From the NCBI GenBank assembly GCA_021799275.1, contig JAJZAT010000001.1, positions 161,431 to 225,430 of the forward strand: a stretch of 64,000 bases of DNA, given 5' to 3'. Under the pieces are notes generated by a model that had not been told where the DNA came from, did no database searches, and was given only the letters and a program-made list of their open reading frames with translations. The DNA is from Bacillota bacterium. GTDB lineage: Bacteria > Bacillota > Sulfobacillia > JAJZYS01 > JAJYTV01. Shown here piece after piece: positions 1-40,315 of this stretch. Positions within the stretch are counted from its first letter, which is position 1. Each line of letters opens with the position of its first letter. The translations under genes and the position numbers were made by a program.

Positions 1-660
1 GAGGGCCTCCGCCCAGGTCGCGCCCGCCTTCGCTCCCTGCGCTCGAAGCTGCTCCTCGAGACGTGCGAGGTAGGGATCCTCGGGGCCGAACTGCGAGCGG
101 TGGCAGGCGATCGCCCGGCTGCGCGCCGCGTGGGCCGCGGGCTCGAGGGGGCTCAGGACGTCCGCCCGGTCGGGAAAGTAGAAGAGCACCCCTTGGACCG
201 TCCAGGGTGCGAAGGTGCCGGGCGCATAGTGGACGAGCCCCGAAAGCAGAGCTGCCTCGGCCACCGCAAGGCCGACGGCGCGGTGGTCCGAGTGCGCTTC
301 GTAGCGCAGCCAGGGGTCGCAGACCAGCACGAAGTCGGGGCGGCAGCGCCGGATCTCCTGGACCGCCTGGTCGCGCAGATCGTAGGGCTCGTGGGGGCCT
401 CCGTCGGGCAGGCCGAGCAGATGAAGGCGTGCGCCGAGCACGTCCGTCGCGGCCTGGGCCTCGCCGCTCCTCAGATGGGCGACCTCCTCCGGGGAGGTGC
501 TCCTGTCGCGCGTGCCCAGCCTGCCGTCGGTCACGACGGTCAGGTGCACCTCGGCACCACCCTCGGCAAGGCGCCAGAGCGTGCCGCCGCAGCCGAGCTC
601 GGCGTCGTCCGGATGCGGCGAGAACGCGAGGTAGCGCTGCGCCGTCTGCCAGTCCTGCAA
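1..660 (-). CDS. PIG-L/LmbE family deacetylase; the C-terminus runs off the window start
   Basis: Own minus-strand translation from TTG at 658-660, with GGAGAGGGG just upstream: LQDWQTAQRYLAFSPHPDDAELGCGGTLWRLAEGGAEVHLTVVTDG...LRYEAHSDHRAVG. The PHPDD-x-E and H-x-DH motifs are PIG-L hallmarks. It is not in the ORF track because there is no stop inside the window. The + ORFs 63..680 and 100..690 are its antisense shadows. Confidence 0.8.
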   Translation of the reverse strand, partial: MQDWQTAQRYLAFSPHPDDAELGCGGTLWRLAEGGAEVHLTVVTDGRLGTRDRSTSPEEVAHLRSGEAQAATDVLGARLHLLGLPDGGPHEPYDLRDQAVQEIRRCRPDFVLVCDPWLRYEAHSDHRAVGLAVAEAALLSGLVHYAPGTFAPWTVQGVLFYFPDRADVLSPLEPAAHAARSRAIACHRSQFGPEDPYLARLEEQLRAQGAKAGATWAEAL

Positions 661-686: not shown

Positions 687-1025
687 CTAAAGGCTCAGGG
701 ACGCCTCGATGGGCAGCACGAACACGACCGTGCCGCTCTCCCAGTCGCCGTAGGCGTAAGGTTGCGCCGGACCCGCGCTCTGGCGCAGGTCCTGCACGAT
801 GCCGTCCACTTCGTCCTCGGGCGCCACCAGCACGAGCACCGCGCTGCCGCGTCTGAGAAAGCCTCCCTGGGCCAAGAGGCGCGTGAAGCGGCGCTGACGG
901 TGGCGCAGGAACGTCTCCACCTTGCCCAGCCGCGGCTCAGGCACCACAGCGATCACCTGACGCAGTTCGCCGCCGTGGCTCTCGTCCGGCACGGGTCGTC
1001 CCCCTCCGCTCTGGTCTCGTCTCAT
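687..1025 (-). CDS. PII-like cyclic-di-AMP receptor family protein (DarA/PstA, DUF970-like)
   Basis: QVIAVVPEPRLGKVETFLRHRQRRFTRLLAQGGFLRRGSAVLVLVAPEDEVDGIV...SGTVVFVLPIEA matches, from memory, the DarA/PstA pattern (IVAVV..F-x-TKLATTGGFL-x-GNTT..GGATVFV-PVD). The ATG at 1025 overlaps the dnaE2 stop (ATGA). An alternative GTG at 992 follows a GGAGGGG SD by about 8 nt. Confidence 0.65.
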   Translation of the reverse strand: MRRDQSGGGRPVPDESHGGELRQVIAVVPEPRLGKVETFLRHRQRRFTRLLAQGGFLRRGSAVLVLVAPEDEVDGIVQDLRQSAGPAQPYAYGDWESGTVVFVLPIEASLSL

Positions 1026-4000
1026 TCTACGCGCAGACCGAGGTCGGGCTCAAAGAGTTCCTCCGCACGCACCGTGATGCCCCGCCCGCGCCGCTGCACC
1101 CTGCCCAGGACGCCCAGGAGGGGCGGTCGCCGGCCGAAGAGCAGGTCGCCCTGACGATGGTAGACGTCCTCCATCGCGACGAGGTCGAGAAGGCCGGTCT
1201 CGTCCTCGAGCATAAAGAACGCCACCACGGCGCCGCTGCGCGTCGGCGGCCGGTGCGGCCGGTAGGGCACGCCCGCGACGCGGACCGTCTCCCCGTGGCG
1301 CAGATGCTTGACGAGCCTGACGCTCTCGATGCCCTGGCCCTTCAGGGCCGGCCTGGCCGCGGCCGCAAGGTGGCTGGGTCCGCGCAGGCCGAGCACGGCC
1401 TCCTGACGCCAGAAGCGCTGCCAAGGCTCGAAGTCCGGCATGTCCCGCGGCACCGGGCGGAAGAGGCCGTCTTCATCGGGCGGCGCCCCGATCTGGAAAA
1501 GCAGTCGGCGCCGGTTGCGGTCGAAGCAGTCGAGGGCTCCCCCGTCGCAGAGCGCCGAGAGTTCATCCGCCTTGAGCCCCGTGCGCGCGACAAGGTCCTC
1601 TAGACTCCGGAACGGCCTCTCCCGCCGCGCCGCGAGGATGCGCTCGCGCTGCGCCGCGCCGAGGCCGCGCACGGCGCAGAGCCCCACGCGCACGGCGCCG
1701 CCCTCCACCGTATAGGAAGACTCGGATCGCCGGATGTCGAGCGGCTTGAAGCGCACCCCGCGCCGCATGGCCTCGCCCACCAGGATGTGCGGCGGGTAGT
1801 AGCCCATCGGCTGCTGCGACAGAAGCCCCGCGAAGAGCGCCTCGGGGCGGCGTGCGGAGAGCTGCGCGGTGCGCAGGGCGGTATGCGCGAAGGCGGCGGC
1901 ATGCGCCTCGGGAAAGCCGTAGCTCGCATAGCCCTGCAGCATGGTGAAGATCTCCCGCGCCACGATGGGATCGGTGCCGCTTTCGGCCGCCTTCCGGCAG
2001 AAGAGCTCACCCAGGCTTTCCATCTCGGCGACCGAGCGCGCATGCGTCATCACGCGGCGGAGCTGGTCGGACTCGCCCGGCGTGAAGCCGCCGATCGCGG
2101 TCGCGATCTCGATCACCTGCTCCTGGAAGAGCACGACGCCGTAGGTCTTCTCGAGGATCGGCCGCAGGCGCGGATCGAGGTAGGTGACGCTCTCCTTGCC
2201 GGCACGCCGCCTGAGATACGGGGTGACCATGTTGCCCTTGATCGGCCCCGGCCGGATGATCGCGAGCGCATGCACGATGTCCTCGAACCCATGCGCGCCC
2301 ATCTGCCCCTGCAGGGCCCGCTGCGCCGGACTCTCGAGCTGGAAGAGGCCGATCGTCTCGCCCGAGGCCACGAGCGCCATCGCCGCGGGATCCTCGGCCG
2401 CCCTGGCCTCCGCGAGCTCGGGGGCGGCCCGGTACGCCTCGTCCAGCACGGCGAGCGTGCGCAGGCTGAGGAGGTCGAACTTGAGGAAGCCGAGATCCTC
2501 GACATCCACCTTGTCGAACGGCACGATCGCCACGCCCTTGGCCGACAGCTGGCGCGGCGCCACCTCGCTCACAGGCTGCCGGCTCACAATGAGCCCGCCG
2601 AGATGCGTGCCGAGATGGCGCGGCAGCCCGGCCACGGCCGCCGCCGCGCGCAACAGCAGGGCCAGGCGCTCGGAGGCCCCGGACGCCGCCTTGAGCTCGG
2701 GGAAGAGATCCCAGCGCCGCAGGATCGCGTCGGCGGGCATGTGCGGCAGGCGGCGCTGCAGTTCCGCCACCTCCGCGGCGGGAAAGCCGAGGGCCCTGCC
2801 GAGATCGCGCACGGCCGAGCGTCCCTGGAAGGTCTGGTAGGTGGCGACGCCGGCGACATGCTCTTCGCCGTAGCGCCGGAAGAGATAGGCCGCGACGCGG
2901 TCGCGCGCCCGGTGGTCGAAGTCGAGGTCGATGTCGGGCCGCTCGGCCCGCTCGCGGTTCAGAAAGCGCTCGAACAGAAGGTGGCGCGCGATCGGGTCGA
3001 CCTCCGTCAGGCCGAGGCAGTAGGCGACGGCGGAGTCCGCGGCGGAGCCGCGTCCCGCGACGCGGATCCCCTCCGACCGCGCGAAGCGGACGACATCCCA
3101 GACCAGCAGGAAATACTCGGCGAAGCCGAGTTCCGCGATCGTGCCGAGTTCGTGCCGCAGTCGCCTCCCCACCTCCCCCCGCAGATCGCCGTAGCGGCGG
3201 ACGGCCCCGTCGTGCACCAGTTGTTCCAGCACGCCCTGCGCCGTGTGGCCGGGCGGCAGCGGATAGGCCGGGTAGAGCCGCACGCCAGGGGTGATCGGCA
3301 CGTCGCAGCGCGCCGCAATCTCGTCGGTGACCGCGAGGAGGTCCGGCCGATCGGCGAAGCGCTCCCGCATCTCCTGCGCCGAGAGCAGATAGCGCTCGCC
3401 GTTCAACGGGCGCTCGGGGCGCACCTCGTCGACACTGCAGCCGATCCGCACGCACGTCAGCAGGTCATGCACCCAGAAGTCCTCGCGCCGCAGGTGGTGC
3501 ACCGCCGCGGTTGCCACCTGCGGCAGGTCCAGGCGACGCGCCAGTTCGCCTAGCCCCGCCTCGAGGGCCAGGTCGCCCGGCAGGGCGCCGCGTTGCACCT
3601 CCACATAGAGCCGGCCGGGAAAGAGTTCACGCAGTCGGCGCAGCATCTCCTCGGCCTCCTGCGGGCGCCTTGCGAGCAGGGCTCTCGAGACCGGTCCCGT
3701 GCGGCCGCCGGTGAGCGCGATCAGTCCCTCTTCGCCGGCAAGGGCGCGATAGGGCAGGCGCGGCTCGCCCCGCGGGGAGCCGAGGTGGGCCGCCGTCAGC
3801 AGGCGGCAGAGCCCCGCGTAGCCTTCGGCCCCCGTAGCGAGCAGGGTCAGGCGCGCGCCGTCCGCGAGCGTCACCTCGCTGCCGGCGATCGGCCGGATGC
3901 CGAGCCGCCGCGCCGCGCGGCAGAAGGACGGCACGCCGCTCACGCTGTCATGGTCGGTGAGGGCCATGGCCGTCTGCCCGAGTTCGGCCGCGCGCGCGGC

Positions 4001-4066
4001 CAGGGCCTCGGGCATCGCGGTCCCATCCAGAAGCGAGAAGGCGGAGTGCACATGCAGGTGCACCAT
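1022..4066 (-). CDS. dnaE2: error-prone DNA polymerase III alpha subunit DnaE2
   Basis: PHP domain start MVHLHVHSAFSLLDGTAMPEAL...ALTDHDSVSG. About 1015 aa with Pol III alpha core and an OB-fold tail. ORF track 1022..4324. I prefer the internal ATG at 4066 (AGGAAGGA about 10 nt upstream), because the 86-aa extension is R/S-rich junk. Confidence 0.9.
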   Translation of the reverse strand: MVHLHVHSAFSLLDGTAMPEALAARAAELGQTAMALTDHDSVSGVPSFCRAARRLGIRPIAGSEVTLADGARLTLLATGAEGYAGLCRLLTAAHLGSPRGEPRLPYRALAGEEGLIALTGGRTGPVSRALLARRPQEAEEMLRRLRELFPGRLYVEVQRGALPGDLALEAGLGELARRLDLPQVATAAVHHLRREDFWVHDLLTCVRIGCSVDEVRPERPLNGERYLLSAQEMRERFADRPDLLAVTDEIAARCDVPITPGVRLYPAYPLPPGHTAQGVLEQLVHDGAVRRYGDLRGEVGRRLRHELGTIAELGFAEYFLLVWDVVRFARSEGIRVAGRGSAADSAVAYCLGLTEVDPIARHLLFERFLNRERAERPDIDLDFDHRARDRVAAYLFRRYGEEHVAGVATYQTFQGRSAVRDLGRALGFPAAEVAELQRRLPHMPADAILRRWDLFPELKAASGASERLALLLRAAAAVAGLPRHLGTHLGGLIVSRQPVSEVAPRQLSAKGVAIVPFDKVDVEDLGFLKFDLLSLRTLAVLDEAYRAAPELAEARAAEDPAAMALVASGETIGLFQLESPAQRALQGQMGAHGFEDIVHALAIIRPGPIKGNMVTPYLRRRAGKESVTYLDPRLRPILEKTYGVVLFQEQVIEIATAIGGFTPGESDQLRRVMTHARSVAEMESLGELFCRKAAESGTDPIVAREIFTMLQGYASYGFPEAHAAAFAHTALRTAQLSARRPEALFAGLLSQQPMGYYPPHILVGEAMRRGVRFKPLDIRRSESSYTVEGGAVRVGLCAVRGLGAAQRERILAARRERPFRSLEDLVARTGLKADELSALCDGGALDCFDRNRRRLLFQIGAPPDEDGLFRPVPRDMPDFEPWQRFWRQEAVLGLRGPSHLAAAARPALKGQGIESVRLVKHLRHGETVRVAGVPYRPHRPPTRSGAVVAFFMLEDETGLLDLVAMEDVYHRQGDLLFGRRPPLLGVLGRVQRRGRGITVRAEELFEPDLGLRVE

Positions 4067-4092: not shown

Positions 4093-4119
4093 AAAAGCCT
4101 CCCGCCATGCGACGGGAGG
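4093..4119 (-). terminator. terminator-like GC hairpin plus T4 just upstream of the dnaE2 RBS
   Basis: Minus strand reads CCTCCCG-tcgcatgg-CGGGAGG followed by CTTTTCC. It lies between the GNAT start and the dnaE2 start. Confidence 0.3.
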
Positions 4120-4157: not shown

Positions 4158-4697
4158 TTGGCCACAGGAGGCGGCGCCACGCGCGAACTGACCTTCCGGC
4201 GTCTCGAGGCGGACGATCTGCCGCTCCTCGGCTCCTGGCTCGCCGAGGAGCCCGCCCTGCGCTGGTACCAAAGCGGCAGGGCGCCGACGGCGGAGGAGCT
4301 CAAGGCGAAATACCTGCCGCGCATCCGCGGCGAAGTGCCGGTCGCCTGCTGGATCCTGCTGCGGGAGGGTCGGCCGGCCGGCTTCTTCCAGACCTACCTG
4401 CTGCGGGACTTCCCCGATCATCCGGCCGGTCCCCGCCCCCATGCCGCCGGCATCGACTACCTGCTCGCGCCGGCCGAGACCGGCCACGGCCTCGCGGCCC
4501 CGGCCCTGCTCGAGTTCCTGCGCCAGGTGGTGTTCCTGGCGCCGGATGTCGTGCGCTGCTACGCGGATCCCGATCCGGCCAACCTCGCCTCGGTGCTCTC
4601 CCTGCGCCGCGCGGGTTTCCGCAGGAGTCCCGGGCCTTGGGTCGAGGGCGTCATGCTGCTCTCCTGCACGCGCCGCCGGGCCTTCCTTCAATCGTAG
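4158..4697 (+). CDS. GNAT N-acetyltransferase (Acetyltransf_8 / aminoglycoside-6'-like)
   Basis: LTFRRLEADDLPLLGSWLAEEPALRWYQSGRAPTAEELKAKYLPRI...GIDYLLAPAETGHGLAAPALLEFL...DPDPANLASVLSLRRAGFR. TTG at 4158 with GGAGG 9 nt upstream. This is the in-frame part of ORF 3897..4697. Confidence 0.75.
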   Translation: MATGGGATRELTFRRLEADDLPLLGSWLAEEPALRWYQSGRAPTAEELKAKYLPRIRGEVPVACWILLREGRPAGFFQTYLLRDFPDHPAGPRPHAAGIDYLLAPAETGHGLAAPALLEFLRQVVFLAPDVVRCYADPDPANLASVLSLRRAGFRRSPGPWVEGVMLLSCTRRRAFLQS

Positions 4698-4933
4698 TTG
4701 CGGGTCAGGGTCCAGTCGCGCCGGTCGAGATCGAAGAGGAGCTCGAACACACCGCCGCCCTCGGTCTCGACGCGGTAGACCTGCCGCTCGCCGTGCCCCT
4801 CCCACCATTCGCCGGCCTCCCGCCAGGCCTCGAGCACCCGCGCGACGCGGTGCCGGCCGCGGAAGGAAAAGGCGAGCGGCGCTCCATCCCTGCGTGCCGC
4901 CACCGGCACAGGCCGGTTCACCAGTCTCGACAT
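4688..4933 (-). CDS. small W-rich protein downstream of imuB-like gene (DUF6504-like, from memory)
   Basis: 81 aa: ...RVLEAWREAGEWWEGHGERQVYRVETEGGGVFELLFDLDRRDWTLTRNYD. GAGGGG SD upstream, and a 22-nt gap after the imuB-like stop. The 3' end overlaps the convergent GNAT gene by 10 nt. Confidence 0.55.
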   Translation of the reverse strand: MSRLVNRPVPVAARRDGAPLAFSFRGRHRVARVLEAWREAGEWWEGHGERQVYRVETEGGGVFELLFDLDRRDWTLTRNYD

Positions 4934-4955: not shown

Positions 4956-6089
4956 CTATTGCCGCAGCTCGATCTCGCCGTGCCGGTAGGGGTCGTAGTA
5001 GGTCAGGCGCTGTTCCCGCCCAGGCAGGCGCTCGAGCGGCGGCGGTCCTGTCCTGCGCCGCTGCGGCGCCCGCGCGACCGGATAAAAGAGGCCGCGCTCC
5101 TGGCTGGACGTTGCCTCCTCGGTCGCCGGCAGCAGGCGCAGGCAGATCTCGCGCACGCCATCCCCGGCGGCCGCGAAGGCCATGCCGAGCAGGGCCGCCT
5201 CCAGCCGGTGCCGCTCGCGCGTCGGCCGAAGCAGGGCGCGGCGCGTCGTCCTGCGGCAGGACGCGAGATCCTCGACCACCAGCTCGAGCGCCCCGATCGA
5301 TGGCAGGCGCCGCGGCCCGGCGGTCAGGGTCGAGAGCGCGTCCGTCACCGCCCGGGCGATCTCGAGACGGTTCGTGCAGGCAGCCTCGGGATAGCTGCGC
5401 CGCCACGAAAGGTCCTGCGGCGGCTGCAACGGCCTAAAGCCGACCGGCTCCTCGCCCTGCGCAAACTGCCAGAGTTCGCGCCCGACCGGCCCCACTTGCT
5501 GCCACAGGGCGCCAGCGCCGAGCGGCAGCACGTCTTGGACCGTCCTCAGCCCGAGAGCGGCAAGGCGGCGCTGCGCCGACGGCGGCAGCCAATCGAGCGC
5601 CGCGAGCGGCAGGTCGCCCCGCTCGCCCGCGTAGACGAGGTCACCCTCCGCCTCCCTGGGCAGGCCGCCCCGCACCCGGGCTCTGGCAAGGCGCAGACTT
5701 TCGCCCGCCGCGGCGCGCACCCGCCAGCCGATACCCCGGCAGGCCGCGATTGCGGCCGGGACATCCCCGAGCGACCAGAGTTCGATCGCCATCTCGCCGA
5801 TGCCGCCCTCCATCACGCCGCGGGCCACGGTGAACAGGCCTTGGCGCAGTTCCGCCTGCAGCTCCGCGCAGGCGGAATCCCCGGGATCCCGGCGCCAGAG
5901 CAGGCCCAAGGCGATCAGCGCGGCGGGAGACATCTCCTGTCCCAGGACGAGGCCGCTGCCCGCCGCCCGCGCCGAAAGATCGCGCAGACGCCGGCCCGAG
6001 AGCACGGCAAGGGGCTTGTCGGCGAGCCCGGGCTCGTGCTGCTGCAGAGCCTGGGCCCGCATGCCGTCGATCTCCATGTACAGCAGCAT
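4956..6089 (-). CDS. imuB: ImuB-like Y-family polymerase homolog (probably non-catalytic)
   Basis: MLLYMEIDGMRAQALQQHEPGLADKPLAVL aligns to the Y-family N-terminus, but the D-x-D-x-FF/Y motif is degenerate (E-I-D-G-M-R). ATG at 6089 with GGAG upstream. The longer track ORF (to 6227) would run across the LexA box. Confidence 0.8.
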   Translation of the reverse strand: MLLYMEIDGMRAQALQQHEPGLADKPLAVLSGRRLRDLSARAAGSGLVLGQEMSPAALIALGLLWRRDPGDSACAELQAELRQGLFTVARGVMEGGIGEMAIELWSLGDVPAAIAACRGIGWRVRAAAGESLRLARARVRGGLPREAEGDLVYAGERGDLPLAALDWLPPSAQRRLAALGLRTVQDVLPLGAGALWQQVGPVGRELWQFAQGEEPVGFRPLQPPQDLSWRRSYPEAACTNRLEIARAVTDALSTLTAGPRRLPSIGALELVVEDLASCRRTTRRALLRPTRERHRLEAALLGMAFAAAGDGVREICLRLLPATEEATSSQERGLFYPVARAPQRRRTGPPPLERLPGREQRLTYYDPYRHGEIELRQ

Positions 6090-6108
6090 GTCGTGTCGCT
6101 CCGTTTCA

Positions 6109-6120
6109 GAACATTTGTTC
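6109..6120. promoter_or_regulatory. LexA (SOS/Cheo-type) box GAACATTTGTTC
   Basis: Perfect palindromic GAAC-N4-GTTC located 20 nt upstream of the imuB-like ATG, in an AT-richer spacer. Confidence 0.7.
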
Positions 6121-6182
6121 TTATTCAGAGTATAGGCGGCCCCGAGCCGACCGTCAAGCCAAGCTAGGTGGCAATGCATGCA

Positions 6183-6224
6183 TAAAAAGACACCGCTCCC
6201 CTGCACACTGCAGAGGGAGCGGTG
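6183..6224 (-). terminator. rho-independent terminator
   Basis: CACCGCTCCC(CTGCA-cac-TGCAG)aGGGAGCGGTG long hairpin, followed on the minus strand by TCTTTTTAT. It sits just after the stop at 6240. Confidence 0.7.
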
Positions 6225-6239
6225 CAACCGGGAGGCGGT

Positions 6240-6461
6240 TCAGGAGATCAAGCTGTAAATCCAAAAGAAGACGGCGAGCGTGATGACGCCGACGAGCACG
6301 GCATCCATGTCCACCACGGCCCCCTGCACGGCGCTCCCGGCAGCGAGGGCGACTTGTCCGAGCATCATCGCGCCGGAGAACACGCCAAGGAACAACCAAC
6401 GACGCAAGCTTCGCCACCCCCCATGCGGCGTACGACGCACATTGTAGCAGAATTGCGCCAT
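6240..6461 (-). CDS. small two-TM membrane protein
   Basis: MAQFCYNVRRTPHGGWRSLRRWLFLGVFSGAMMLGQVALAAGSAVQGAVVDMDAVLVGVITLAVFFWIYSLIS. It has two hydrophobic helices and is followed by a strong terminator. The start is chosen at the internal ATG. Confidence 0.45.
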   Translation of the reverse strand: MAQFCYNVRRTPHGGWRSLRRWLFLGVFSGAMMLGQVALAAGSAVQGAVVDMDAVLVGVITLAVFFWIYSLIS

Positions 6462-6688: not shown

Positions 6689-7141
6689 ATGGCCCACCGG
6701 TTGTTCACGGTGTCCGAAGCGAACGCTCTCGTGCCATTCCTGGAAGGCCATCTTCGACGCCTTCAGGAACTGCAGCGGCAGGCACAGTCCCACTTCGAGG
6801 AGATGGAGCGGATCAAGGCAGTCGGCTACAAGCCTGACGGCAAGCTGATCTTGCAGCGGGACTTCCAGGACACCCGCGACGCCTTCGACCGCTCGGTTGC
6901 GGAGGCCAACGCCCGGATCGCCGACATCAACCGCACCGGTTGCCAGCTCAAGAGCGTCGAGTCGGGGCTCGTGGACTTCCCGAGCGTGCTCGAGGACCGC
7001 GAGGTCCTGCTCTGCTGGAAGCTCGGCGAAGACGCCCTGCGCCATTTCCACTCACCACTGGAGGGCTTCGACGGACGCCGCGAACTGCCCGACTGGGCCT
7101 TGCCCCAGGAGTCCAGCGATCCCAACGCCAACGCAAGCTGA
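6689..7141 (+). CDS. DUF2203 family protein
   Basis: MAHRLFTVSEANALVPFLEGHLRRLQEL...GCQLKSVESGLVDFPSVLEDREVLLCWKLGEDALRHFH matches the DUF2203 pattern from memory. GGGAGGTG lies 7 nt upstream of the ATG at 6689. Confidence 0.75.
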   Translation: MAHRLFTVSEANALVPFLEGHLRRLQELQRQAQSHFEEMERIKAVGYKPDGKLILQRDFQDTRDAFDRSVAEANARIADINRTGCQLKSVESGLVDFPSVLEDREVLLCWKLGEDALRHFHSPLEGFDGRRELPDWALPQESSDPNANAS

Positions 7142-7209: not shown

Positions 7210-7755
7210 TCAGCGGGACGCCTTGGCCACCTTGTCGGCGATCGCTCGACAACAGGCGGCCGGATCCATAGCCGTCGTATCGACCACGACATCGTAGTCG
7301 ACGCCCTGGTGGACGATGAGCGCCTGCGCTCTGGCCATGCCGGCGATCCGATCCCCGCGCGCCGCTTCGCGCGCTTCGGCGACCTCCGGGTCGCAGCGCA
7401 CGCCCACCCACAGCACCTCGAGGTCCCTGAGTGCCGCGCGCCATCGCTCCTGACCCTCGCGGCCCCCGAGGAAGACGTCGTCGACGATGATGCGGGCCCC
7501 GGCCCGGGCCATGGCGGCGATCCCCTCCATCCACGCGGTCTCCAGTTCCCGGAACGTAGGTCCCGGCGTGACGGTCCCACCCGGATCGAACCGGATGCCA
7601 TCCTCGGTCGACTCGAGCGAAGGCGGCAGCGCCGAGACGAACGTGTCGATGCTGAAGGAGAGCCAAGGTTCCCGCAGATCGTTCTGCAGGCTATGCGCGA
7701 GGGTGGATTTGCCGGAACTCGATCCGCCGTTCAGGACGATCACGCTCGCCGCCAA
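7210..7755 (-). CDS. chloramphenicol phosphotransferase-like (CPT family) P-loop kinase
   Basis: [20 protein letters not shown]...WLSFSIDTF...[10 protein letters not shown] is typical of the CPT family. Confidence 0.8.
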
Positions 7756-23415: not shown

Positions 23416-24546
23416 TCAACTTCGGCTCCGCATGTCCTGGAAATCCCGCACGCGCTCGACGAGCCCTGGCGGCCAATCGTTCAGGACCTGATCCACGTGC
23501 AGCGGGGTGCCTCGCAGGTCGAGCTCCTGGCGGCCGATCGGCTCGTCGCGATCGTCCGCGACCACGGTCACCAGCGGCTGCAGGGGGTTACCGGGATTGA
23601 GCCCGGTCACGAGGCCAAGGAGGCCGTTCGTCAGGCGTACGATCTCGCCGACGGGGATGATCGCCACGTGCTCCAGAAGTGCCTGCACGGCCGAGGCGTC
23701 GAGCTTCGGACCGGCCTCCTCCTGCATGATCTGCAGCACCTTCCGAGGTGCGTAGCGCATCCTGTAGTTGCGCTCCGCCCGGATGGCGTCGAACACGTCG
23801 GCCGCGGCGACGATGCGCGAGAAGACGTAGATCTCGTCGCCCTTGAGGTGCGATGGATATCCCGACCCGTCCAGGCGCTCGTGGTGCTGGAGCACGACGA
23901 TCGACGACGTCGGCATGATGTTCTGGAACCCTTCGTGGACCAGATCCCAGCCAAGCCTCGGGTGCTGCCTCACGATCTCGAATTCCTCGGTCGTCAACGA
24001 TGCCGGCTTCTGCAGGATCTCCTGCGGCACCGTCACCTTGCCGATGTCATGCAGGATGGCTCCCGTCCCCAGCCGCACGAGCTGGTCCTCCGTCATCAGA
24101 AGGTGCTTGCCCACCAGCACCGACAAAAGGGCGACCTGGACCGAATGCTCGAAGGTGTAGTTGTCCCAGGTCCTGAGATGGGCAACGTTGGCGACGACGT
24201 CGTCGTTCTGCAGGATGTCTTCGACCATGCTGCGCAGGGCCGTGGCGAGGCGGAGCGCCTGCGCCTGGCTCGGCGGCTCGCTATCCTTGGCGCTGCGGAA
24301 GATGTCGTCGAGGCAGCGCCTGGTGACCGCGATCGTCTCGTCGCGTACGACCGTCTGCACCTCAAGATCGGGAAAGAGCTCGTCGGTCACCCAGATCGCG
24401 TGGATGCCCCGGCGCCGCAAGGCTCCGACCATCGAGGGCCGGATTTGGGTGCCACGCCGCAGCAGCGGCGTCCGCCCCGTTCGGTTGAAGACGGTCTTCG
24501 CGGAAAACTTGCCGACGATCTCCTCGTCGACCTGTACCCTTCGCAA
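23416..24546 (-). CDS. HD-GYP domain c-di-GMP phosphodiesterase (canonical motifs)
   Basis: ILHDIGKVTVP, QHHERLDGSGYP, AAADVFDA. DUF3391-like N-terminus. TTG at 24546 lies 7 nt after GGAGG. The track ORF extends to 24684. Confidence 0.85.
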   Translation of the reverse strand: MRRVQVDEEIVGKFSAKTVFNRTGRTPLLRRGTQIRPSMVGALRRRGIHAIWVTDELFPDLEVQTVVRDETIAVTRRCLDDIFRSAKDSEPPSQAQALRLATALRSMVEDILQNDDVVANVAHLRTWDNYTFEHSVQVALLSVLVGKHLLMTEDQLVRLGTGAILHDIGKVTVPQEILQKPASLTTEEFEIVRQHPRLGWDLVHEGFQNIMPTSSIVVLQHHERLDGSGYPSHLKGDEIYVFSRIVAAADVFDAIRAERNYRMRYAPRKVLQIMQEEAGPKLDASAVQALLEHVAIIPVGEIVRLTNGLLGLVTGLNPGNPLQPLVTVVADDRDEPIGRQELDLRGTPLHVDQVLNDWPPGLVERVRDFQDMRSRS

Positions 24547-24646
24547 GTGGCGACCTCCGTTTGCAAATACCAAACAAGGTCGGCATATTCGACGGGCTGG
24601 TGCCGCATCCCTCTGAGGAAGTGGCCATGCAAAACCAGGCGGACGC

Positions 24647-25142
24647 TTATGCGTGCTCCTGGTTTCCGCAATCTGGCAAGCCAATTGGGGGTTCGTGCAA
24701 CATGAAGCTGTTCATATCCCCCCCTTGACGAAAGCCACTGGCGGCATAGAACGCCTCGGCTCCCGTGTTGTCCTCGAGTGTGCGATGCCCCCCGGATGGC
24801 GTTCGCCGCCATCGGACCCCTCCGTTCTCCGCTGACCGACCCCGCCCAACGCCAGCGCCGCCTCTGGTGCGCCTCGACCTCGTAGAGGAGCACCTCCCTT
24901 CCTCGTCCCGTCGCCGCGGCAGCACGAGGCAGAAAGGAATCCCATCGGCTCGTCGCTCTCATGCGCGGCCCCAGCGCAGGACCCCACCGCCGGCGAGAAA
25001 GGTCTCGGACTCCTGTCGGCCAAACGGTTGCGGCGCCCATCGAGAACGAACTGCGGGTCCCTCGACGCAGGTCCGACAGCCCCTGCTCGTCACCCACGCC
25101 GAGCCTGCGGGTCTCCTGCCAGCCGCCACGTTCTTCGCACAT
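24647..25142 (-). pseudogene. putative frameshifted GNAT acetyltransferase remnant
   Basis: GNAT-like pieces lie in three frames: ESDEPMGFLSA / RGRGAPEAALAL / EDNTGAEAFYAASGF. G-homopolymer runs occur at the junctions. The first ATG overlaps the upstream ABC gene stop (TGATG). Confidence 0.35.
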
Positions 25143-30327: not shown

Positions 30328-31461
30328 CTAGAGGATGCGGCCGCGACGCGCCCGCTCGAGGACGGCCTGCGGCCAGTCGTCCAGGATTTCGCGCACGTAG
30401 ACGCGCGAGCCGCGGAGTTGGACCTGCCGGCGCTGAATGTCACCGCCGCTGTCCGCCAGCACGACGCAGAGCGGTTGCAGCGGTGCACTGGGGCTGTGCG
30501 CAACCACCTTGGCGAGGGCGCCGTCGGTCAGCCGGACGATTGCGCCATGCGGCACGATCGCCACGTGACGCAGCACGATGGCGCAGGACTTGTTGTCGAG
30601 CGCCACGCCCGCCTCCTCCTGCAAGAGGCCCACGATCTGAGCGGGGCGGAACCGCCGGCGGTGCGGCCGGTCCGAGCGGACGGCCGTCAGGACGTCCGCC
30701 ACGGCGGCGATGCGGGCGAAAAGATAGATGTCGGGTCCCTGGCGGCCTTTGGGGTAACCCGAGCCGTCGAGCCGCTCATGGTGCTGCAGAACGACGCTCG
30801 CGGCCGTGGGCGCCACCGAGGGCAGCCAGCGATGGATGATCTGCCAGCCGGCCCTGGGGTGCCCGAGCATGGCCGTGACGCCGTCGGCGTCAAGGAGTCC
30901 CGGCTGCGAAAGGATGCTCTCCGGCATCCGGCCGAGCCCGACGTCCATCAGCAGGGTGCCGAGGCACAAGCGCAGGAGCTGGTCGCGCGCGAGCGGGTAA
31001 TGCCTGCCGATCTGCACCGCGATCGCCGCCGCCTCGACGGCATGCGCGGCGCGGTCGGTACCGCCGGCGTCCCAGGGCCCGAGGTCCGAGACCTCCGCCT
31101 CCGCCGCCAGTACCTCCTCGACCAGTTTGCGCGCCGCCTGCAGCAGGCGCCGCAGTTCCGCGACCGGCCGTTCCTGGCGAGGGCGGGACAGGGCGGCGGT
31201 GATGTCGGACACGGCCGCGGCGGCTTCGAGGCGAACGTGGACCGGCACCGTGTCAAGCACCGGGAAATCCGGAAAGAGCTCGTCCCTGAGAAAGACATGC
31301 TGGACGCCGCGCGAAAGCAGGGCCGCCACGTCGCGCCGGTCCAGACGCACGCCTGCTGCCACCAGCAGTCCCGTGCCGTCCGGTCCGGCGATGTCGACGG
31401 CGACCTCGCGTCCGACCATGGCTTCCGTCAGGAGGTAACGCTGCACGTCATGCCCTCCCAT
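30328..31461 (-). CDS. HD-GYP paralog with degenerate HD dyad
   Basis: LLMDVGLGRMP replaces LHDIGK. HHERLDGSGYP is retained. AVADVLTA replaces AAADVFDA. The start is either ATG at 31461 or GTG at 31446 (GGGAGGG 8 nt upstream). Confidence 0.8.
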   Translation of the reverse strand: MGGHDVQRYLLTEAMVGREVAVDIAGPDGTGLLVAAGVRLDRRDVAALLSRGVQHVFLRDELFPDFPVLDTVPVHVRLEAAAAVSDITAALSRPRQERPVAELRRLLQAARKLVEEVLAAEAEVSDLGPWDAGGTDRAAHAVEAAAIAVQIGRHYPLARDQLLRLCLGTLLMDVGLGRMPESILSQPGLLDADGVTAMLGHPRAGWQIIHRWLPSVAPTAASVVLQHHERLDGSGYPKGRQGPDIYLFARIAAVADVLTAVRSDRPHRRRFRPAQIVGLLQEEAGVALDNKSCAIVLRHVAIVPHGAIVRLTDGALAKVVAHSPSAPLQPLCVVLADSGGDIQRRQVQLRGSRVYVREILDDWPQAVLERARRGRIL

Positions 31462-31534
31462 CGCATGGTAACGTCCTTGGCCACCGTGTGAATATGGCGC
31501 TGGCGTCAATATCGGAAGGGCCGTGCCAAGCCAG

Positions 31535-31568
31535 GCGCCGACCCTGCCGGGTATGGCCGGGTCGGCGC
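31535..31568 (-). terminator. terminator-like hairpin after pspAA
   Basis: GCGCCGACCC-14nt-GGGTCGGCGC, a 10-bp stem with no clear T tail. Confidence 0.45.
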
Positions 31569-31591
31569 GTATGTTCAGGAGAAGGCCGGGG

Positions 31592-31858
31592 TCAGGCGTG
31601 CTGCGTGAAGTAGGCGCGCGCCTCCTCGAGCGTGATGTCGGCTGGCGGCAGGACAAGGTCCGACTCGCGCAGCACCTCAGCCGGGAGCATCCGGCCCTCC
31701 GCGCGCACCAGCGCGAGCAGCGCATCCCGCCGCTGCGCGAAGCCCTGCTCGTCACCGGCCGTCAGCCGCTCCATCAGCTCGTCGTCGAGCCTGCGCAGAT
31801 CCGTGAGCGCCGAGGGCGGTAGCTCGTACTGCCCTTCGTGCAGGATGCGGGCGATCAC
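31592..31858 (-). CDS. PspA-associated protein PspAA-like
   Basis: MIARILHEGQYELPPSALTDLRRLDDELMERLTAGDEQGF...LVLPPADITLEEARAYF matches the PspAA pattern from memory. 4-nt overlap with pspA. Confidence 0.65.
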   Translation of the reverse strand: MIARILHEGQYELPPSALTDLRRLDDELMERLTAGDEQGFAQRRDALLALVRAEGRMLPAEVLRESDLVLPPADITLEEARAYFTQHA

Positions 31859-35968: not shown

Positions 35969-37834
35969 ATGGCGGCGATCACCGAGCGCGTAGCCATCGC
36001 GCATGCGCAGGAGCGCAACTACCGCGGCATCTGGGCCTGGCTTGCGACGGTCGACCACAAGAAGATCGGCATCATGTACATCTACGCGGCGCTCTTCTTC
36101 ATGGCCTTCGGCGGCGCCGAGGCGCTCCTCGTTCGCATCCAGCTCTGGCAGCCGAACAATCACCTCGTCTCCGCCGAGACCTTCAATCAGCTCTTCACCA
36201 TGCACGGTGTGACGATGATCTTTCTCGTCGCCATGCCCATCCTGATCGGCTACATCAACGCGATCGTGCCGCTACAGATCGGCGCGCGCGACGTCGCCTT
36301 CCCGCGCATGAACGCGCTCTCGCTTTGGCTCTTCGTGCTAGGTGGGATCTTCCTCTACACCAGCTGGTTCATGGGCGGCGCCCCTGACGCCGGGTGGTTC
36401 AACTACGTGCCCCTCTCCGGGGCCCACTACAGCCCAGGCGCCGGCGTCGACTTCTACGACATCGGCCTGCAGATCACCGGTATCGGCACCTTGATGACGG
36501 CCATCAACTTCCTTGTGACGATCCTCAACATGCGGGCGCCGGGAATGCGACTTTTGCGCATGCCGATGTTCACCTGGTCGGCGCTGATCACGATGCTGCT
36601 GATCCTGTTCGCCTTCCCGCCCATCACGGTGAACCTCATCCTGCAGATGATGGATCGCCTGTTCCACGCCACCTTCTTCAACATCCCGCTCGGCGGCAAC
36701 GCGCTGCTGTGGCAGAACCTCTTCTGGATCTTCGGCCATCCCGAGGTGTACATCGTGATCCTGCCGGCGTTCGGCATCATCTCGGAGATCATCCCGACCT
36801 TCAGCCGCAAGCCTCTCTTCGGCTACGAGTCGATGGCGCTCGCCCTCTCGGTGATCGCGTTCCTCTCCTTCATGGTCTGGACGCACCACATGTTCGCCGA
36901 CGGGCTCGGTCCGATCGTCAACTCGATCTTCGCGATCACGTCGATGTTGATCGCGGTACCGACAGGCATCAAGATCTTCAACTGGCTCGCGACCCTCTGG
37001 GGAGGCCAGATCCGCTTCACCACGGCGAACCTCTACGCGCTGGCGTTCATCCCGCTCTTTGTGATCGGCGGCATCAGCGGCGTCATGCTCGCCATGGCCC
37101 CTGCGGACCTGCAGTACAACGACAGCTACTTCGTCGTGGCGCACTTCCACTACGTCCTGTTCGGCGGCACCCTGATGGGCGCCCTTGCGGGCCTCTACTA
37201 CTGGTTCCCGAAGATCTGGGGACGCCTTCTGAACGAGAAGCTCGGCCGCCTCAACTTCTGGCTCGTGTTCATCGGCTTCAACGTGACCTTCTTCCCGATG
37301 CACATCCTCGGGCTGGAAGGCATGCCGCGCCGCATCTCGACCTACGCGCCGGGTTACGGCTGGACGACACCGAACCAGATCGCGACCGTGGGCGCGTTCA
37401 TCCTCCTCGCCGGTATGCTGGTGCTGCTCTACAACCTGATCAGCACCTTCATGAAGCAGCCGGACCTCGTGCAGGACCCGTGGGACGCCCGCTCGCTCGA
37501 GTGGTCGATCCCTTCGCCGACACCGGAGTACAACTTCGCGCAGATCCCGCTGGTCGAGGATCGCGACGCCTACTGGGTGGCGAAGCGCGAAGGGAGCGGC
37601 GAGTTGCCGAAGGCCGAGCCGGTGGGACCGATCCACATGCCGTCGCCCAGCCTGTCGCCGTTCTTCCTTGCCGTGACCATCGTCATCGCGGGCTACGCGG
37701 CTCTCCTGCACGCCGACTGGCTGGCGCTCATCGCCCTGCTCGCGGCCTTCTGGCAGATCGGCCTGCAGCTCGTGCATGAGGACCACGGCTACCACGTGCA
37801 TCCCGACGTCCCGACGGGAGGTGCGACCGAGTGA
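35969..37834 (+). CDS. ctaD: cytochrome c oxidase subunit I
   Basis: WFFGHPEVYIVILPAFG-type motif (IFGHPEVYIVILPAFGIISE). 621 aa, as in Bacillus CtaD. Confidence 0.95.
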   Translation: MAAITERVAIAHAQERNYRGIWAWLATVDHKKIGIMYIYAALFFMAFGGAEALLVRIQLWQPNNHLVSAETFNQLFTMHGVTMIFLVAMPILIGYINAIVPLQIGARDVAFPRMNALSLWLFVLGGIFLYTSWFMGGAPDAGWFNYVPLSGAHYSPGAGVDFYDIGLQITGIGTLMTAINFLVTILNMRAPGMRLLRMPMFTWSALITMLLILFAFPPITVNLILQMMDRLFHATFFNIPLGGNALLWQNLFWIFGHPEVYIVILPAFGIISEIIPTFSRKPLFGYESMALALSVIAFLSFMVWTHHMFADGLGPIVNSIFAITSMLIAVPTGIKIFNWLATLWGGQIRFTTANLYALAFIPLFVIGGISGVMLAMAPADLQYNDSYFVVAHFHYVLFGGTLMGALAGLYYWFPKIWGRLLNEKLGRLNFWLVFIGFNVTFFPMHILGLEGMPRRISTYAPGYGWTTPNQIATVGAFILLAGMLVLLYNLISTFMKQPDLVQDPWDARSLEWSIPSPTPEYNFAQIPLVEDRDAYWVAKREGSGELPKAEPVGPIHMPSPSLSPFFLAVTIVIAGYAALLHADWLALIALLAAFWQIGLQLVHEDHGYHVHPDVPTGGATE

Positions 37835-38454
37835 GCGCGCAGAGCGAGACCACGCGCATCGCCTTGGAGCACGAGACCTCGCAGGAACTCGGGCTGCCCA
37901 AGGACCATCGCATCCTCGGACTCTGGATCTTCCTCGCCGGCGAGTGCGCGTTCTTCGCGTCGCTGATCGGCGCCTACCTGGGCCTGCACACGGGCGTCGC
38001 CCACGGACCGACCGGAGCGCAGATCTTCGACCTGCCGCTCACCACCGTCGCCACGCTGATCCTGCTTTCGAGCAGCCTCACGGTGGTGCTCGGCGTCGCC
38101 GCGATGCAGCGGCGCGACGTGCGCGGCATGCAGATCTGGCTCTGGCTGACGGCGCTCCTTGGCATCTTCTTCCTCGAATTCCAGGGCTACGAGTTCTACA
38201 CGTTCTATCACCACGGACTCACGCTGCAGACCAGCGCCTTCGGCTCCGCGTTCTACACGCTCACCGGCTTCCATGGTCTGCACGTGGCGTTCGGAGTGTT
38301 CTGGATCCTGCTGCTCCTCTTCCAGTCGCTCAAGCACGGCATCAACGAGGAGCGCACCACGAAGGTCTTCATCATGAGCCTCTACTGGCACTTCGTGGAC
38401 GTCGTCTGGGTCGTGATCTTCACCCTCGTCTACCTCGCAGGAAAGGTGAGCTGA
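37831..38454 (+). CDS. ctaE: cytochrome c oxidase subunit III
   Basis: Five-TM subunit III pattern (FYTLTGFHGLHVAFGV). GTGA overlap with ctaD. Confidence 0.9.
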   Translation: MSAQSETTRIALEHETSQELGLPKDHRILGLWIFLAGECAFFASLIGAYLGLHTGVAHGPTGAQIFDLPLTTVATLILLSSSLTVVLGVAAMQRRDVRGMQIWLWLTALLGIFFLEFQGYEFYTFYHHGLTLQTSAFGSAFYTLTGFHGLHVAFGVFWILLLLFQSLKHGINEERTTKVFIMSLYWHFVDVVWVVIFTLVYLAGKVS

Positions 38455-38458
38455 AGCG

Positions 38459-38767
38459 ATGAGCCAGGAGACACCGCTGATGCCCCAGGGGGCTGAGCGC
38501 TCGCAGAAGGCGCTCTACATCACGATCGGGGTCCTGAGTCTCGTGCTGACGCTCGTGGCCGTCTTCCTCGTGGAGATCGGCCTGCAGCGCCCCGTGGTGC
38601 TTCCCATCCTCATAGCGCTGGCCATCGTGCAGGTTCTGATGCAGGCCTTCCTGTTCATGCACCTGCGCGGCAGCAGGCACGTCTACACCTACTTCTTCCT
38701 CGCGGGTCTCTCGCTCGCGGTGCTGATCGGGACCTGCCTCATGGTCCTGATCCAACAGTGGGCATGA
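38459..38767 (+). CDS. ctaF: cytochrome c oxidase subunit IV (CtaF-like)
   Basis: 102 aa and 3 TM segments, in the position immediately after ctaE. Confidence 0.8.
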   Translation: MSQETPLMPQGAERSQKALYITIGVLSLVLTLVAVFLVEIGLQRPVVLPILIALAIVQVLMQAFLFMHLRGSRHVYTYFFLAGLSLAVLIGTCLMVLIQQWA

Positions 38768-38797
38768 CGGCATCCGGCCGCTCGTCCCCTCCCCCAG

Positions 38798-39736
38798 GTG
38801 CCAATCTGCGTTAGGGAGATGGCCCCCTTGGCAAATCCGCTTGAACTCGACGTCGCCCGCGGCCGGGCCGGCGTAGCCAGCCTCGGCGACTACGTCCAGC
38901 TCCTCAAGCCGCGCATCATCCTGCTGCTCATCATCACGTCCTACTGCGCCATGGTCGTCGCGTCGCATGGGCTGCCGGCCTTCTGGCCGTCGCTCCTCGG
39001 CACGCTGGGTCTCGCGCTCTCGGCCGGCGGCGCCCACGCCGTCAACATGTGGTACGACCGCGACATCGACGCCCTGATGGCACGCACCAACGACCGTCCT
39101 GTCCCGTCGGGCCGCATTCCGGCCACCCGCTCGCTGATGATCGGCATCGTCCTCGAGGTGGTGTCCTTCGCCCTCCTGCTCGATCTCAACCTAATCACCG
39201 CGCTCCTGTCGCTCGGCGGCTTCGTCTACTACGTCGGCATCTACACGATGTGGCTCAAGCGCCGCACGCCGCAGAACATCGTCATTGGCGGCGGAGCGGG
39301 GGCATTCCCCCCGCTGATCGGCTGGGCCGCGGTGACCGGCCACCTCTCGCTCGCCGCCTTCTGGATGTTCCTGATCATCTTCCTCTGGACGCCGGCCCAC
39401 TTCTGGTCTCTGGCGCTCTTCCGCCAGGACGACTACCGCCGCGCCAACGTGCCGATGATGCCCGTGGCGCGCGGAGAGCGCGTGACCAAGGTACAGTCGC
39501 TGATGTACACGCTGATGCTGCTCGCCGCGACGCTCGGCCTCTACCTCACCGGGGTCGTAGGCGGCCTCTACCTCGCCGCGGCCGCCGTGCTCGGCGTCGG
39601 CTTCGTCGCCATGTGCCTCGGGCTCTTGCGCGAGCACGCGCCGGAGGTGCGCTGGGCCAAGGCCACGTTTGGCTACTCCCTCGTCTACCTGACCCTGCTC
39701 TTCGCCGCGATGGTCTTGAATGTGCACGCGATCTAG
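38798..39736 (+). CDS. ctaB: protoheme IX farnesyltransferase (heme O synthase)
   Basis: UbiA motif NMWYDRDIDALMARTNDRP. The start is uncertain (GTG 38798 versus ATG 38819). Confidence 0.9.
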   Translation: MPICVREMAPLANPLELDVARGRAGVASLGDYVQLLKPRIILLLIITSYCAMVVASHGLPAFWPSLLGTLGLALSAGGAHAVNMWYDRDIDALMARTNDRPVPSGRIPATRSLMIGIVLEVVSFALLLDLNLITALLSLGGFVYYVGIYTMWLKRRTPQNIVIGGGAGAFPPLIGWAAVTGHLSLAAFWMFLIIFLWTPAHFWSLALFRQDDYRRANVPMMPVARGERVTKVQSLMYTLMLLAATLGLYLTGVVGGLYLAAAAVLGVGFVAMCLGLLREHAPEVRWAKATFGYSLVYLTLLFAAMVLNVHAI

Positions 39737-39778
39737 GGGAACCTCATAACGGGATCCGTTGGAAGCGGAGGCGGGCCC

Positions 39779-40231: not shown

Positions 40232-40315
40232 CTACTGGAGGTCCTACGCACGCAACGCCCGTCGACGACCCCATCCTGGGGGCTCCTATGGCTGGCCCGC
40301 ATCACCAACATCCTG

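Follow-up and report, generated by a model that had tools for sequence, protein, structure and literature searches.

A DarA/PstA-like gene ends an SOS mutasome cassette in a narrow clade of Thermaerobacter-related Bacillota and hints at direct c-di-AMP control of mutagenic repair

The window analyzed here is a 64,000-nucleotide (64-kb) stretch of contig JAJZAT010000001.1 from a Bacillota bacterium, with a G+C content of 68%. At its left end, the minus strand carries a small gene whose product resembles DarA and PstA, the PII-like receptors of cyclic di-AMP (c-di-AMP), and this gene follows directly on one for a DnaE2-type DNA polymerase. We found that the DarA-like gene is the constant terminal member of a LexA-box cassette in a narrow, Thermaerobacter-related clade of Bacillota; its product, judged by sequence profiles and a structural model, belongs as a divergent, short-B'-loop member to the PstA/DarA family as broadly drawn by Pfam. 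The locus hints at a direct control of mutagenic repair by c-di-AMP. Taken as a package, namely that the DarA-like protein belongs to the family and to the operon, is a likely c-di-AMP binder and is functionally tied to the cassette, this reading stands at about even in our estimate, and any specific gating mechanism would be considerably less probable than that. The cassette and its predicted control elements are as follows.

687..992, minus strand: DarA/PstA-like PII-type gene, 101 aa, start GTG at 992, TAG stop at 689-687; a 112-aa open reading frame (ORF) extends to ATG at 1025
1007-999, minus strand: Shine-Dalgarno (SD) sequence GGAGGGGGA, 6 nt ahead of the DarA-like GTG (6-10 nt for the conserved element), read from the sequence
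1024..1053, minus strand: promoter-like site, -35 TTGAGC (1053-1048), 18-nt spacer, -10 TAGAAT (1029-1024), in the last 10 codons of dnaE2
1022..4066, minus strand: DnaE2-type (ImuC-like) C-family DNA polymerase, 1014 aa, likely start ATG at 4066; Pfam PHP, DNA_pol3_alpha, finger and HHH_6
4688..4933, minus strand: stand-alone ImuB-C domain protein (DUF6504), 81 aa; Pfam DUF6504 49.2 bits, gathering cut-off 24.2
4956..6089, minus strand: degenerate Y-family polymerase (PolY), ImuB-like, 377 aa; NCBIfam Pol IV E 7e-5, PDB Pol IV E 0.018
6109..6120: LexA (Cheo-type) box, GAACAAATGTTC on the minus strand, 19 nt ahead of the PolY start
6129..6157, minus strand: operon promoter TTGACG-17-TATACT, directly upstream of the LexA box

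A scan of GTDB with one genome per species gave 42 loci, 8 in Bacillota metagenome-assembled genomes and 34 in Chloroflexota. At seven of the eight Bacillota loci, the DnaE2 gene stops 21-29 nt ahead of the DarA-like start. The eighth (L012) is broken by an IS607-like serine recombinase ~20 nt before the dnaE2 stop, and its contig ends inside the element; a TACAAT element and the DarA-like gene are intact there despite the insertion. With the four-gene block present on further ENA, Logan and JGI contigs as well, the adjacency on which the original prediction was built proved not to be specific to one strain. The order PolY, ImuB-C, DnaE2, DarA-like is kept in the window and in L001/L006, L002, L003/L009, L007, L008, L047-L049, L052 and L054, and DnaE2 is followed by the DarA-like gene on the shorter L004, L005, L010 and L011. 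The block is retained down to identities of 56% for the DarA-like protein, 49% for PolY and 75% for DnaE2, while its surroundings change: HD/MFS/GerA genes or an ABC exporter lie upstream, and PIG-L, Peptidase_M29 or a convergent Polysacc_deac_1 gene lies downstream. At L052, a 16-bp hairpin stands directly 3' of the DarA-like stop. The recombinase of L012 (434-1099 on the minus and 1149-1550 on the plus strand), seen at L050 as well, consists of a MerR-type helix-turn-helix and a resolvase part.

The clade that carries the block is narrow. An exhaustive profile search of 1.84 billion representatives gave, at E <= 1e-30, just one cluster at 50% identity, and one member of the clade is labelled 'Thermaerobacter sp.' by NCBI. 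A search with DUF6504 homologues for other ImuB-C/DnaE2 cassettes yielded only four matches; three of them lie on contigs of more than 2.3 kb, with 75-98% identity, and these three belong to this clade. In a metagenome scan with a broad family alignment, the cassette occurred at one of 80 loci, L054, again of the same clade. A dnaE1-like neighbor at four of these 80 loci was rejected as an operon partner, as it lies ~3 kb off, across opposite-strand folate genes; a filter on G+C at third codon positions (GC3), applied for gene finding, was uninformative in these 62%-GC loci. The support for the association consists of gene order in one uncultured clade.

The three upstream genes would make up a mutasome of a described kind. 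The best NCBIfam match of the polymerase was 'error-prone DNA polymerase' (PRK05672; 813 bits, under the cut-off of 939), and it scored 730 bits with the DnaE model PRK05673, under the cut-off of 1002; gene context favors DnaE2 rather than a replicative DnaE. The similarity of the PolY protein to Pol IV/DinB is weak and confined to the thumb and little finger; no match to the Pfam IMS palm was found, and its N terminus reads MEIDGMRAQ where DinB-type enzymes carry a DxD motif (a reading by eye, without structural alignment). The Y-family polymerase is therefore probably catalytically dead. From the position in the cassette and the description in the available part of PMC6511836, we infer that the DUF6504 protein is ImuB-C. 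An ImuA-less mutasome with an inactive Y-family polymerase, a stand-alone ImuB-C and DnaE2 is described for Kyrpidia tusciae (Timinskas and Venclovas 2019; available part of PMC6511836). The loci studied here share with that type the three genes as predicted, their order, the occurrence in Bacillota, the absence of imuA from the loci and an SOS-type regulation, and they differ in a constant fourth member, the PII-like gene, which the available part of that source does not mention.

A LexA box of the Cheo type, perfect in sequence (AGAACAAATGTTCT, core 6120-6109), precedes the cassette. The pattern GAAC-N4-GTTC occurs once in the 64-kb window and once in each of eight related loci, at the same position as in the window. 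The promoter likewise keeps its place in all eight, and the hexamers TTGACG and TATACT recur in L001, L003, L007, L008 and L047-L049. Together, the conserved box and promoter predict that the cassette is under SOS (LexA) control. A role in anti-phage defense was also considered and rejected: PADLOC gave no match for any of the four cassette proteins.

The DarA-like ORF is a real gene under purifying selection. Its ratio of nonsynonymous to synonymous substitution rates (dN/dS) is 0.10-0.18 against relatives at 80-94% identity, from which purifying selection follows, and 0.5-0.6 against distant relatives, which are saturated; its GC3 (0.81) is similar to that of the neighboring genes. A homologue search gave 13 clusters at 90% identity, every one of 99-103 aa, and a profile search raised the close clusters to 18 and added distant ones. 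The product of the window itself is on public record in the 101-aa form (P0194).

The start of translation was then decided by comparison. The minus strand at 687-1025 does hold a 112-aa ORF with an ATG start, and, as the original prediction stated, this ATG (1025-1023) shares bases with the TGA (1024-1022) of the 1014-aa DnaE2-type gene. The ATGA is present because dnaE2 ends in ...GTA GAA TGA. As a functional start it did not hold up, given that the homologues all begin at a GTG or TTG equivalent to position 992 of the window. The upstream ATG is in frame with the DarA-like gene in the window and the close relatives L001, L005 and L007 only; in L008, L003 and L047 no ATG precedes the start codon except that in the overlap with the dnaE2 stop, which is out of frame, and in L052, where dnaE2 ends with TAA, it is absent. 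The 21-29 nt spacer between the dnaE2 stop and the DarA-like start contains a ribosome-binding site of its own, a purine-rich GGAGG-type block whose position is kept in L001, L003, L005, L007, L008, L047, L049 and L052, and the 11 extra codons of the 112-aa form contain the SD itself. The translational coupling to dnaE2 proposed from the ATGA is thus not upheld: the DarA-like gene is equipped with an SD and a GTG of its own, probably with a promoter as well, and the ATGA overlap is itself unconserved. An ATGA-coupled, conserved start was rejected on the same grounds.

The promoter-like site lies inside the end of dnaE2. A scan of 7.3 kb found two sigma-70-like sites against 0.2 expected, the SOS promoter and this internal site, and a 5.7-kb scan of the divergent L047 found the same two and no others. 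The internal hexamers are made from codons that are rare here (TTT, 12% of Phe; GTA, 4% of Val; GAA, 20% of Glu), and the GTA at the internal -10 is the sole one among the 73 Val codons of dnaE2. Among relatives the residues vary between V, L and I and between E and Q, and the codons remain GTA, TTA or ATA and GAA or CAA, although Leu is encoded here by TTA in 0.1% of cases and Gln by CAA in 8%. A -10-like TA(G/C)AAT is preserved in the window and in L001, L003, L005, L007, L008, L010, L011, L047 and L052 because the codons stay xTA-(G/C)AA while the residues change. We regard this as good comparative evidence for nucleotide-level selection on the -10-like hexamer, which would then be under a dual constraint, coding and regulatory. 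The simplest reading is that it is a -10 element that would drive the DarA-like gene independently of LexA. The transcript predicted from the internal promoter begins downstream of the ATG at 1025, in agreement with the GTG start. As the spacer leaves no room for a terminator, any SOS transcript extending to the end of dnaE2 must contain the DarA-like gene too.

The original prediction assigned the protein to the PstA/DarA family (PF06153) from the pattern ...TRLLAQGGFLRRGSAVLVLV...SGTVVFVLPIE, which is indeed present in the ORF, and the assignment was borne out. The 101-aa form scored 27.2 bits with Pfam CdAMP_rec, marginally over the gathering cut-off of 27, and the 112-aa ORF scored 26.6 bits; of the 109 profile positions, only 3-60 are covered. 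Each of the 36 relatives in the alignment matches PF06153 at E <= 0.01. Among PDB sequences, the best matches were PstA from S. aureus (E 1.1e-5) and DarA from B. subtilis (E 4.6e-4). An AlphaFold2 monomer model, built from the 36-sequence alignment, had a predicted local distance difference test (pLDDT) score of 83.6, a predicted template modeling (pTM) score of 0.75 and a beta-alpha-beta-beta-alpha-beta fold. When it was compared with the PDB by Foldseek, PstA-type and DarA structures took ranks 1-9 (4d3h, 4wk1 and 4rww, PstA; 3m05, the PstA-type PEPE_1480; 4rle, DarA), with TMq of 0.69-0.75 and E values of 3.5e-7 to 1.2e-5, and classical PII proteins ranked next. No P-II Pfam match (PF00543, GlnB/GlnK) was obtained for the window protein; its T'-loop is short (GGFL), and the TGxxGDGKI of classical PII is absent. 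Identity as a DarA equivalog was rejected: the score with NCBIfam NF058593 was 29.3 bits against a cut-off of 140, the protein has a short B'-loop, and three ligand contacts (N41, G47 and Q108) are replaced. The strict name DarA should not be applied to the window protein. The overall charge, looked at as a hint of DNA binding, was uninformative (net charge ~0, pI 5.6-11 across the family).

The binding site was examined residue by residue against PstA, which contacts c-di-AMP through N24, R26, T28, G34-G35-F36-L37, N41, G47 (backbone), F99 and Q108 (Campeotto et al., PMC4316997). Equivalences were taken from a HMMER alignment to PstA (4d3g), with the window protein in 101-aa numbering.

PstA R26: window R35, kept
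PstA T28: window T37, kept
PstA G34-G35-F36-L37: window G43-G44-F45-L46, kept
PstA G40: window G49, kept
PstA F99: window F91, kept
PstA N24: window Q, replaced
PstA N41: window S, replaced
PstA G47: window V, replaced
PstA Q108: window S, replaced

T37, G43-G44-F45 and G49 are invariant in 36 family members, R35 and F91 nearly so, and position 46 is L or M. In place of the full motif TKLxxxGGFLxxGNTT the window reads TRLLAQGGFLRRGSAV, with N41 changed to S and TT to AV. In PstA, the T28A and GGFL-to-AAAA mutations abolished binding, and N41A raised the dissociation constant from 0.37 to 9.6 uM, ~25-fold (PMC4316997). The second difference concerns the B'-loop. Between the end of helix 2 (residue 73) and the strand at 89-94 there are 15 residues, compared with ~30 in PstA, so that the long B'-loop of PstA (~66-90) is ~15 residues shorter in the window protein. 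A naturally short loop is compatible with binding, because PstA without its B'-loop (residues 71-87) still binds c-di-AMP in lysates (PMC4316997). Judged from these residues, c-di-AMP binding by the window protein is plausible.

Compared with PstA of S. aureus and L. monocytogenes and DarA (YaaQ) of B. subtilis, the window protein thus shares the fold, the short T'-loop GGFL, the equivalents of R26, T28 and F99, and the build of a small stand-alone protein without an enzymatic domain. It differs in sequence (~26-28% identity), in a 9-residue N-terminal extension, and in the shorter B'-loop, which in PstA/DarA is thought to carry the output. The canonical context in Firmicutes is tmk-darA-yaaR-holB; the window gene instead lies in an SOS mutasome operon, after dnaE2. 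The window also has a thymidylate-kinase-like gene (50226-50909, minus strand), near PPK2 (44518-45342) and Ppx/GppA (47478-49016) genes and, unlike the Bacillus tmk-darA pair, without a DarA-family neighbor.

The closest relatives outside the clade are short-loop 'YaaQ' proteins with 34-41% identity, from Chloroflexota and other phyla. These proteins, of 87-100 aa or in two-domain fusions of ~220 aa, share with the window protein the short B'-loop and a GGFMRRG motif, and, unlike it, they occur in tandem pairs, in fusions or downstream of ruvX. Tandem DarA-like pairs were found at 52 Chloroflexota loci, for example at L018 (8974-9273 and 9298-9636). Among the 80 metagenome loci (L054-L133), 34 carry ruvX and, immediately downstream of it in the same orientation, a short DarA-like gene; the short-loop family has here a second context with a nucleic-acid enzyme. 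None of the Chloroflexota and metagenome short-loop loci examined adjoins dnaE2 or ImuB-C, apart from L054 of the same clade. Some particulars of these loci were recorded in passing. In the Chloroflexota pairs (L013-L046; P0046-P0065), one protein is short-looped and the other has a canonical VEVEVGGA C terminus, and two-domain DarA-like fusions of ~210-260 aa also exist. At L115, ruvX (YqgF; Pfam RuvX, E 3e-41) occupies 5397-5879 and the DarA-like gene 6001-6270, and RuvX identities go down to 45% across the loci with this arrangement. Three PstA orthologues have been noted in Sphaerobacter and Thermomicrobium (Campeotto et al., PMC4316997).

Two further genes bear on the arrangement in the window and its subclade.

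~4158..4697, plus strand: GNAT acetyltransferase gene, Pfam Acetyltransf_8 E 2.4e-17; start approximate, TTG near 4158 or ATG at 4107
1..660, minus strand: PIG-L/LmbE-type deacetylase gene, TTG at 660, 26 nt past the DarA-like stop, running off the window; Pfam PIG-L E 1.4e-28

The GNAT gene is wedged between ImuB-C and dnaE2 on the opposite strand, with a 10-nt overlap between its 3' end and the ImuB-C stop. L001, L002, L006, L007, L008 and L054 carry it (74-82% identity); L003, L047-L049 and L052 lack it, and there ImuB-C and dnaE2 are 20-30 nt apart. At L001, gene callers placed a 121-aa same-strand ORF without Pfam match there instead of the GNAT gene. Between the divergent dnaE2 and GNAT genes, ~25 nt upstream of the dnaE2 start, the minus strand holds a hairpin, GCCTCCCG-N8-CGGGAGGC, followed by TTTT (4120-4091), which could be the remnant of an attenuator or terminator or part of the inserted segment. 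The PIG-L gene adjoins the DarA-like gene only in the subclade of the window (L001).

DisA lowers c-di-AMP synthesis at damaged DNA. In 2023, the partner and the function of DarA were called unknown despite extensive efforts, and the contribution of DisA to DNA integrity was likewise listed as open; the ligand-free forms of DarA and DarB are regarded as active or detrimental (PMC10636490). The statement in the original prediction that the output of these receptors is poorly defined no longer holds in full for PstA: the Listeria protein promotes thymineless death at low c-di-AMP (PMC12802241), and a 2026 preprint reports that S. aureus PstA acts with GlnR and GlnA on glnA transcription and proposes the first target complex (PMC13484208). 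The original prediction was also not aware of any description of a link between c-di-AMP signalling and SOS mutagenesis; a general one is published for Mycobacterium smegmatis, where c-di-AMP inhibits RecA-mediated LexA cleavage and where, without DisA, SOS induction, dnaE2 transcripts and UV mutagenesis are all elevated (PMC11653572). That route likewise ties the c-di-AMP level to SOS, dnaE2 expression and UV mutagenesis; it differs from the arrangement here in that RecA and LexA cleavage are direct targets of the messenger, with no PII-like receptor and no operonic link (PMC11653572). No report of a PII-like or DarA-type receptor gene inside a mutasome operon, or of such a receptor acting on a mutasome, was found in the literature searched, and neither PII nor c-di-AMP terms occur in the available parts of PMC6511836 and of a 2026 polymerase survey. 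A literature search on the protein family itself gave hardly anything but unrelated papers. Hence, a general connection of c-di-AMP with SOS mutagenesis is already known (PMC11653572), and what is new, within the literature searched, is a PII-like receptor gene within a mutasome operon. Small proteins that are co-encoded with an SOS-induced translesion polymerase and gate its activity are familiar as UmuD/UmuD', ImuA/ImuA' and YolD (available part of PMC6511836 and general knowledge); they are unrelated to the DarA-like protein in sequence and fold, and none is a nucleotide-messenger receptor.

As regards the messenger itself, the CdaA of Thermaerobacter marianensis serves as a reference sequence (PMC6741144), and therefore at least the genus Thermaerobacter has a cyclase. 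No Rfam family, including the c-di-AMP riboswitch, was found at gathering scores in the window and four related loci. No c-di-AMP cyclase, phosphodiesterase or second DarA gene was found in the 64-kb window (Pfam on 40 ORFs), and a tblastn search of the window with family members and approximate PstA, DarA and CdaA queries found no cyclase or second DarA either. Two HD-GYP-type (Pfam HD_5) proteins, putative cyclic-dinucleotide phosphodiesterases, are encoded at 23419-24684 and 30331-31755, both on the minus strand.

On these data, we envisage the following course of events. The DarA-like gene would be read from the SOS promoter along with dnaE2, and the weak promoter in the end of dnaE2 probably drives it as well, with translation from its own SD and GTG. 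A DarA-like trimer may bind c-di-AMP at the subunit interfaces through the residues of R-x-T...GGF(L/M)RRG...F. By analogy with ligand-free DarB and with the genetics of PstA/DarA, the ligand-free form would bind a partner, which may be a co-encoded mutasome component, that is, DnaE2, the dead PolY, ImuB-C, or their contacts with the clamp or RecA. The c-di-AMP level would then license or brake error-prone synthesis, as a post-translational gate atop LexA control whose direction might be either. An independent promoter suggests that the sensor could be present before the polymerase is induced, which would suit a threshold-setting brake or a licensing factor. That the receptor is a stoichiometric, ligand-gated subunit of the SOS mutasome appears to us improbable.

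Several observations weigh against a functional tie between the DarA-like protein and the mutasome. The association lies within one 50%-identity cluster, and a common origin could explain its gene order in part; the nearest relatives are those of Chloroflexota, and they do not adjoin dnaE2. The conserved own promoter suggests an SOS-independent expression of the DarA-like gene, and in the subclade of the window the antisense GNAT gene parts dnaE2 and the DarA-like gene from the SOS promoter. The Pfam score lies at the cut-off, and the protein fails the DarA equivalog model of NCBIfam. In the binding site, Ser occupies the N41 position (a few relatives have Asn or Thr), where the N41A mutation weakened PstA binding ~25-fold (PMC4316997), and G47 and Q108 are replaced by Val and Ser, respectively.

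The first of these points leads to the explanation that survives best beside a functional tie, one we hold to be possible, if doubtful: the protein would be a genuine c-di-AMP receptor with an unrelated output, such as a GlnR/GlnA-like target, and with its own promoter, in an arrangement that arose once and has been kept by descent. The promoter-like site and SD of the DarA-like gene, the confinement of the subfamily to a single 50%-identity cluster and the tandem-pair and ruvX contexts of its Chloroflexota relatives are all as expected from it. Bacillus darA, too, sits among replication genes, and we know of no replication role shown for it. The action of PstA with GlnR/GlnA (PMC13484208) and the missing partner of DarA (PMC10636490) also fit. 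Descent is, however, harder to reconcile with a four-gene block that stays intact despite reshuffled flanks and a GNAT insertion, and with a 21-29 nt spacer without a terminator, by which SOS transcripts reaching the end of dnaE2 include the DarA-like gene.

It is unlikely, in our view, that the ligand has been changed or lost, so that the PII-like fold would bind another nucleotide or serve as a ligand-independent mutasome subunit in the slot of ImuA/ImuA' or UmuD. Such a change, which would be compatible with either a cassette-linked protein or a neighbor by descent, is suggested by the substitutions at N41, G47 and Q108 and of TT by AV in the TKLxxxGGFLxxGNTT motif, by the threshold-level Pfam score and the failed equivalog model, by a cassette type without imuA (available part of PMC6511836), and by the lack of c-di-AMP riboswitches or genes in the 64-kb window and four related loci. 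However, the equivalents of T28 and GGFL, whose mutation abolished PstA binding, are invariant (L or M at position 46), as are, fully or nearly, the stacking and cation-pi equivalents of F36, F99 and R26 across the family. Moreover, a hydrogen-bond donor remains at position 41 whether the residue is Ser, Asn or Thr, and ~137 kb without c-di-AMP genes is uninformative on a whole genome. Finally, a 112-aa product from the ATG overlapping the dnaE2 stop, with its stoichiometry fixed by termination-reinitiation coupling, is very improbable. The ATGA exists, and its ATG reads in frame in the window and in L001, L005 and L007, but L008, L003 and L047 have it out of frame and L052 has none; every gene call including P0194 is the 99-103 aa form, the 11 extra codons encode the SD, and a transcript from the internal promoter would start downstream of the ATG.

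The remaining genes of the window and related loci were noted for completeness. Upstream of the cassette, a chloramphenicol-phosphotransferase-like kinase is encoded at 7213-7755 on the minus strand (CPT, E 2e-61), and the region ~6693-7136 was also noted. In relatives, a DUF2203 gene diverges from the SOS promoter, and a small ORF of 56-76 aa with a hairpin terminator stands ahead of that promoter (L047, 3398-3421). A complete heme-copper oxidase cluster (COX1, COX3, COX4_pro, UbiA/CtaB, DUF420 and CtaA; 35969-41194, plus strand) points to an aerobic way of life, which agrees with a Thermaerobacter-like organism.

Even if the DarA-like protein does not interact with the mutasome, the locus documents a subfamily of DarA with a short loop and, in thermophilic Bacillota, a mutasome cassette that lacks ImuA and conserves its LexA box; it also illustrates clearly how rare codons keep a promoter within coding sequence. 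What the four-gene operon offers beyond this is a short list of candidate partners, as the other three products form a defined complex. If the proposed gate is real, a messenger from DNA-scanning or envelope-sensing cyclases would decide directly on DnaE2-dependent error-prone synthesis, and the long-sought targets of the DarA family would include C-family polymerase machinery; such targets would fit because the family recurs beside tmk/holB, as is generally known, beside ruvX (34 of 80 loci) and beside dnaE2. An interaction, if it exists, would make the DarA-like protein the first second-messenger receptor built into a translesion or mutagenesis machine, and would tie c-di-AMP to stress-induced mutagenesis by a route other than that of mycobacterial RecA.

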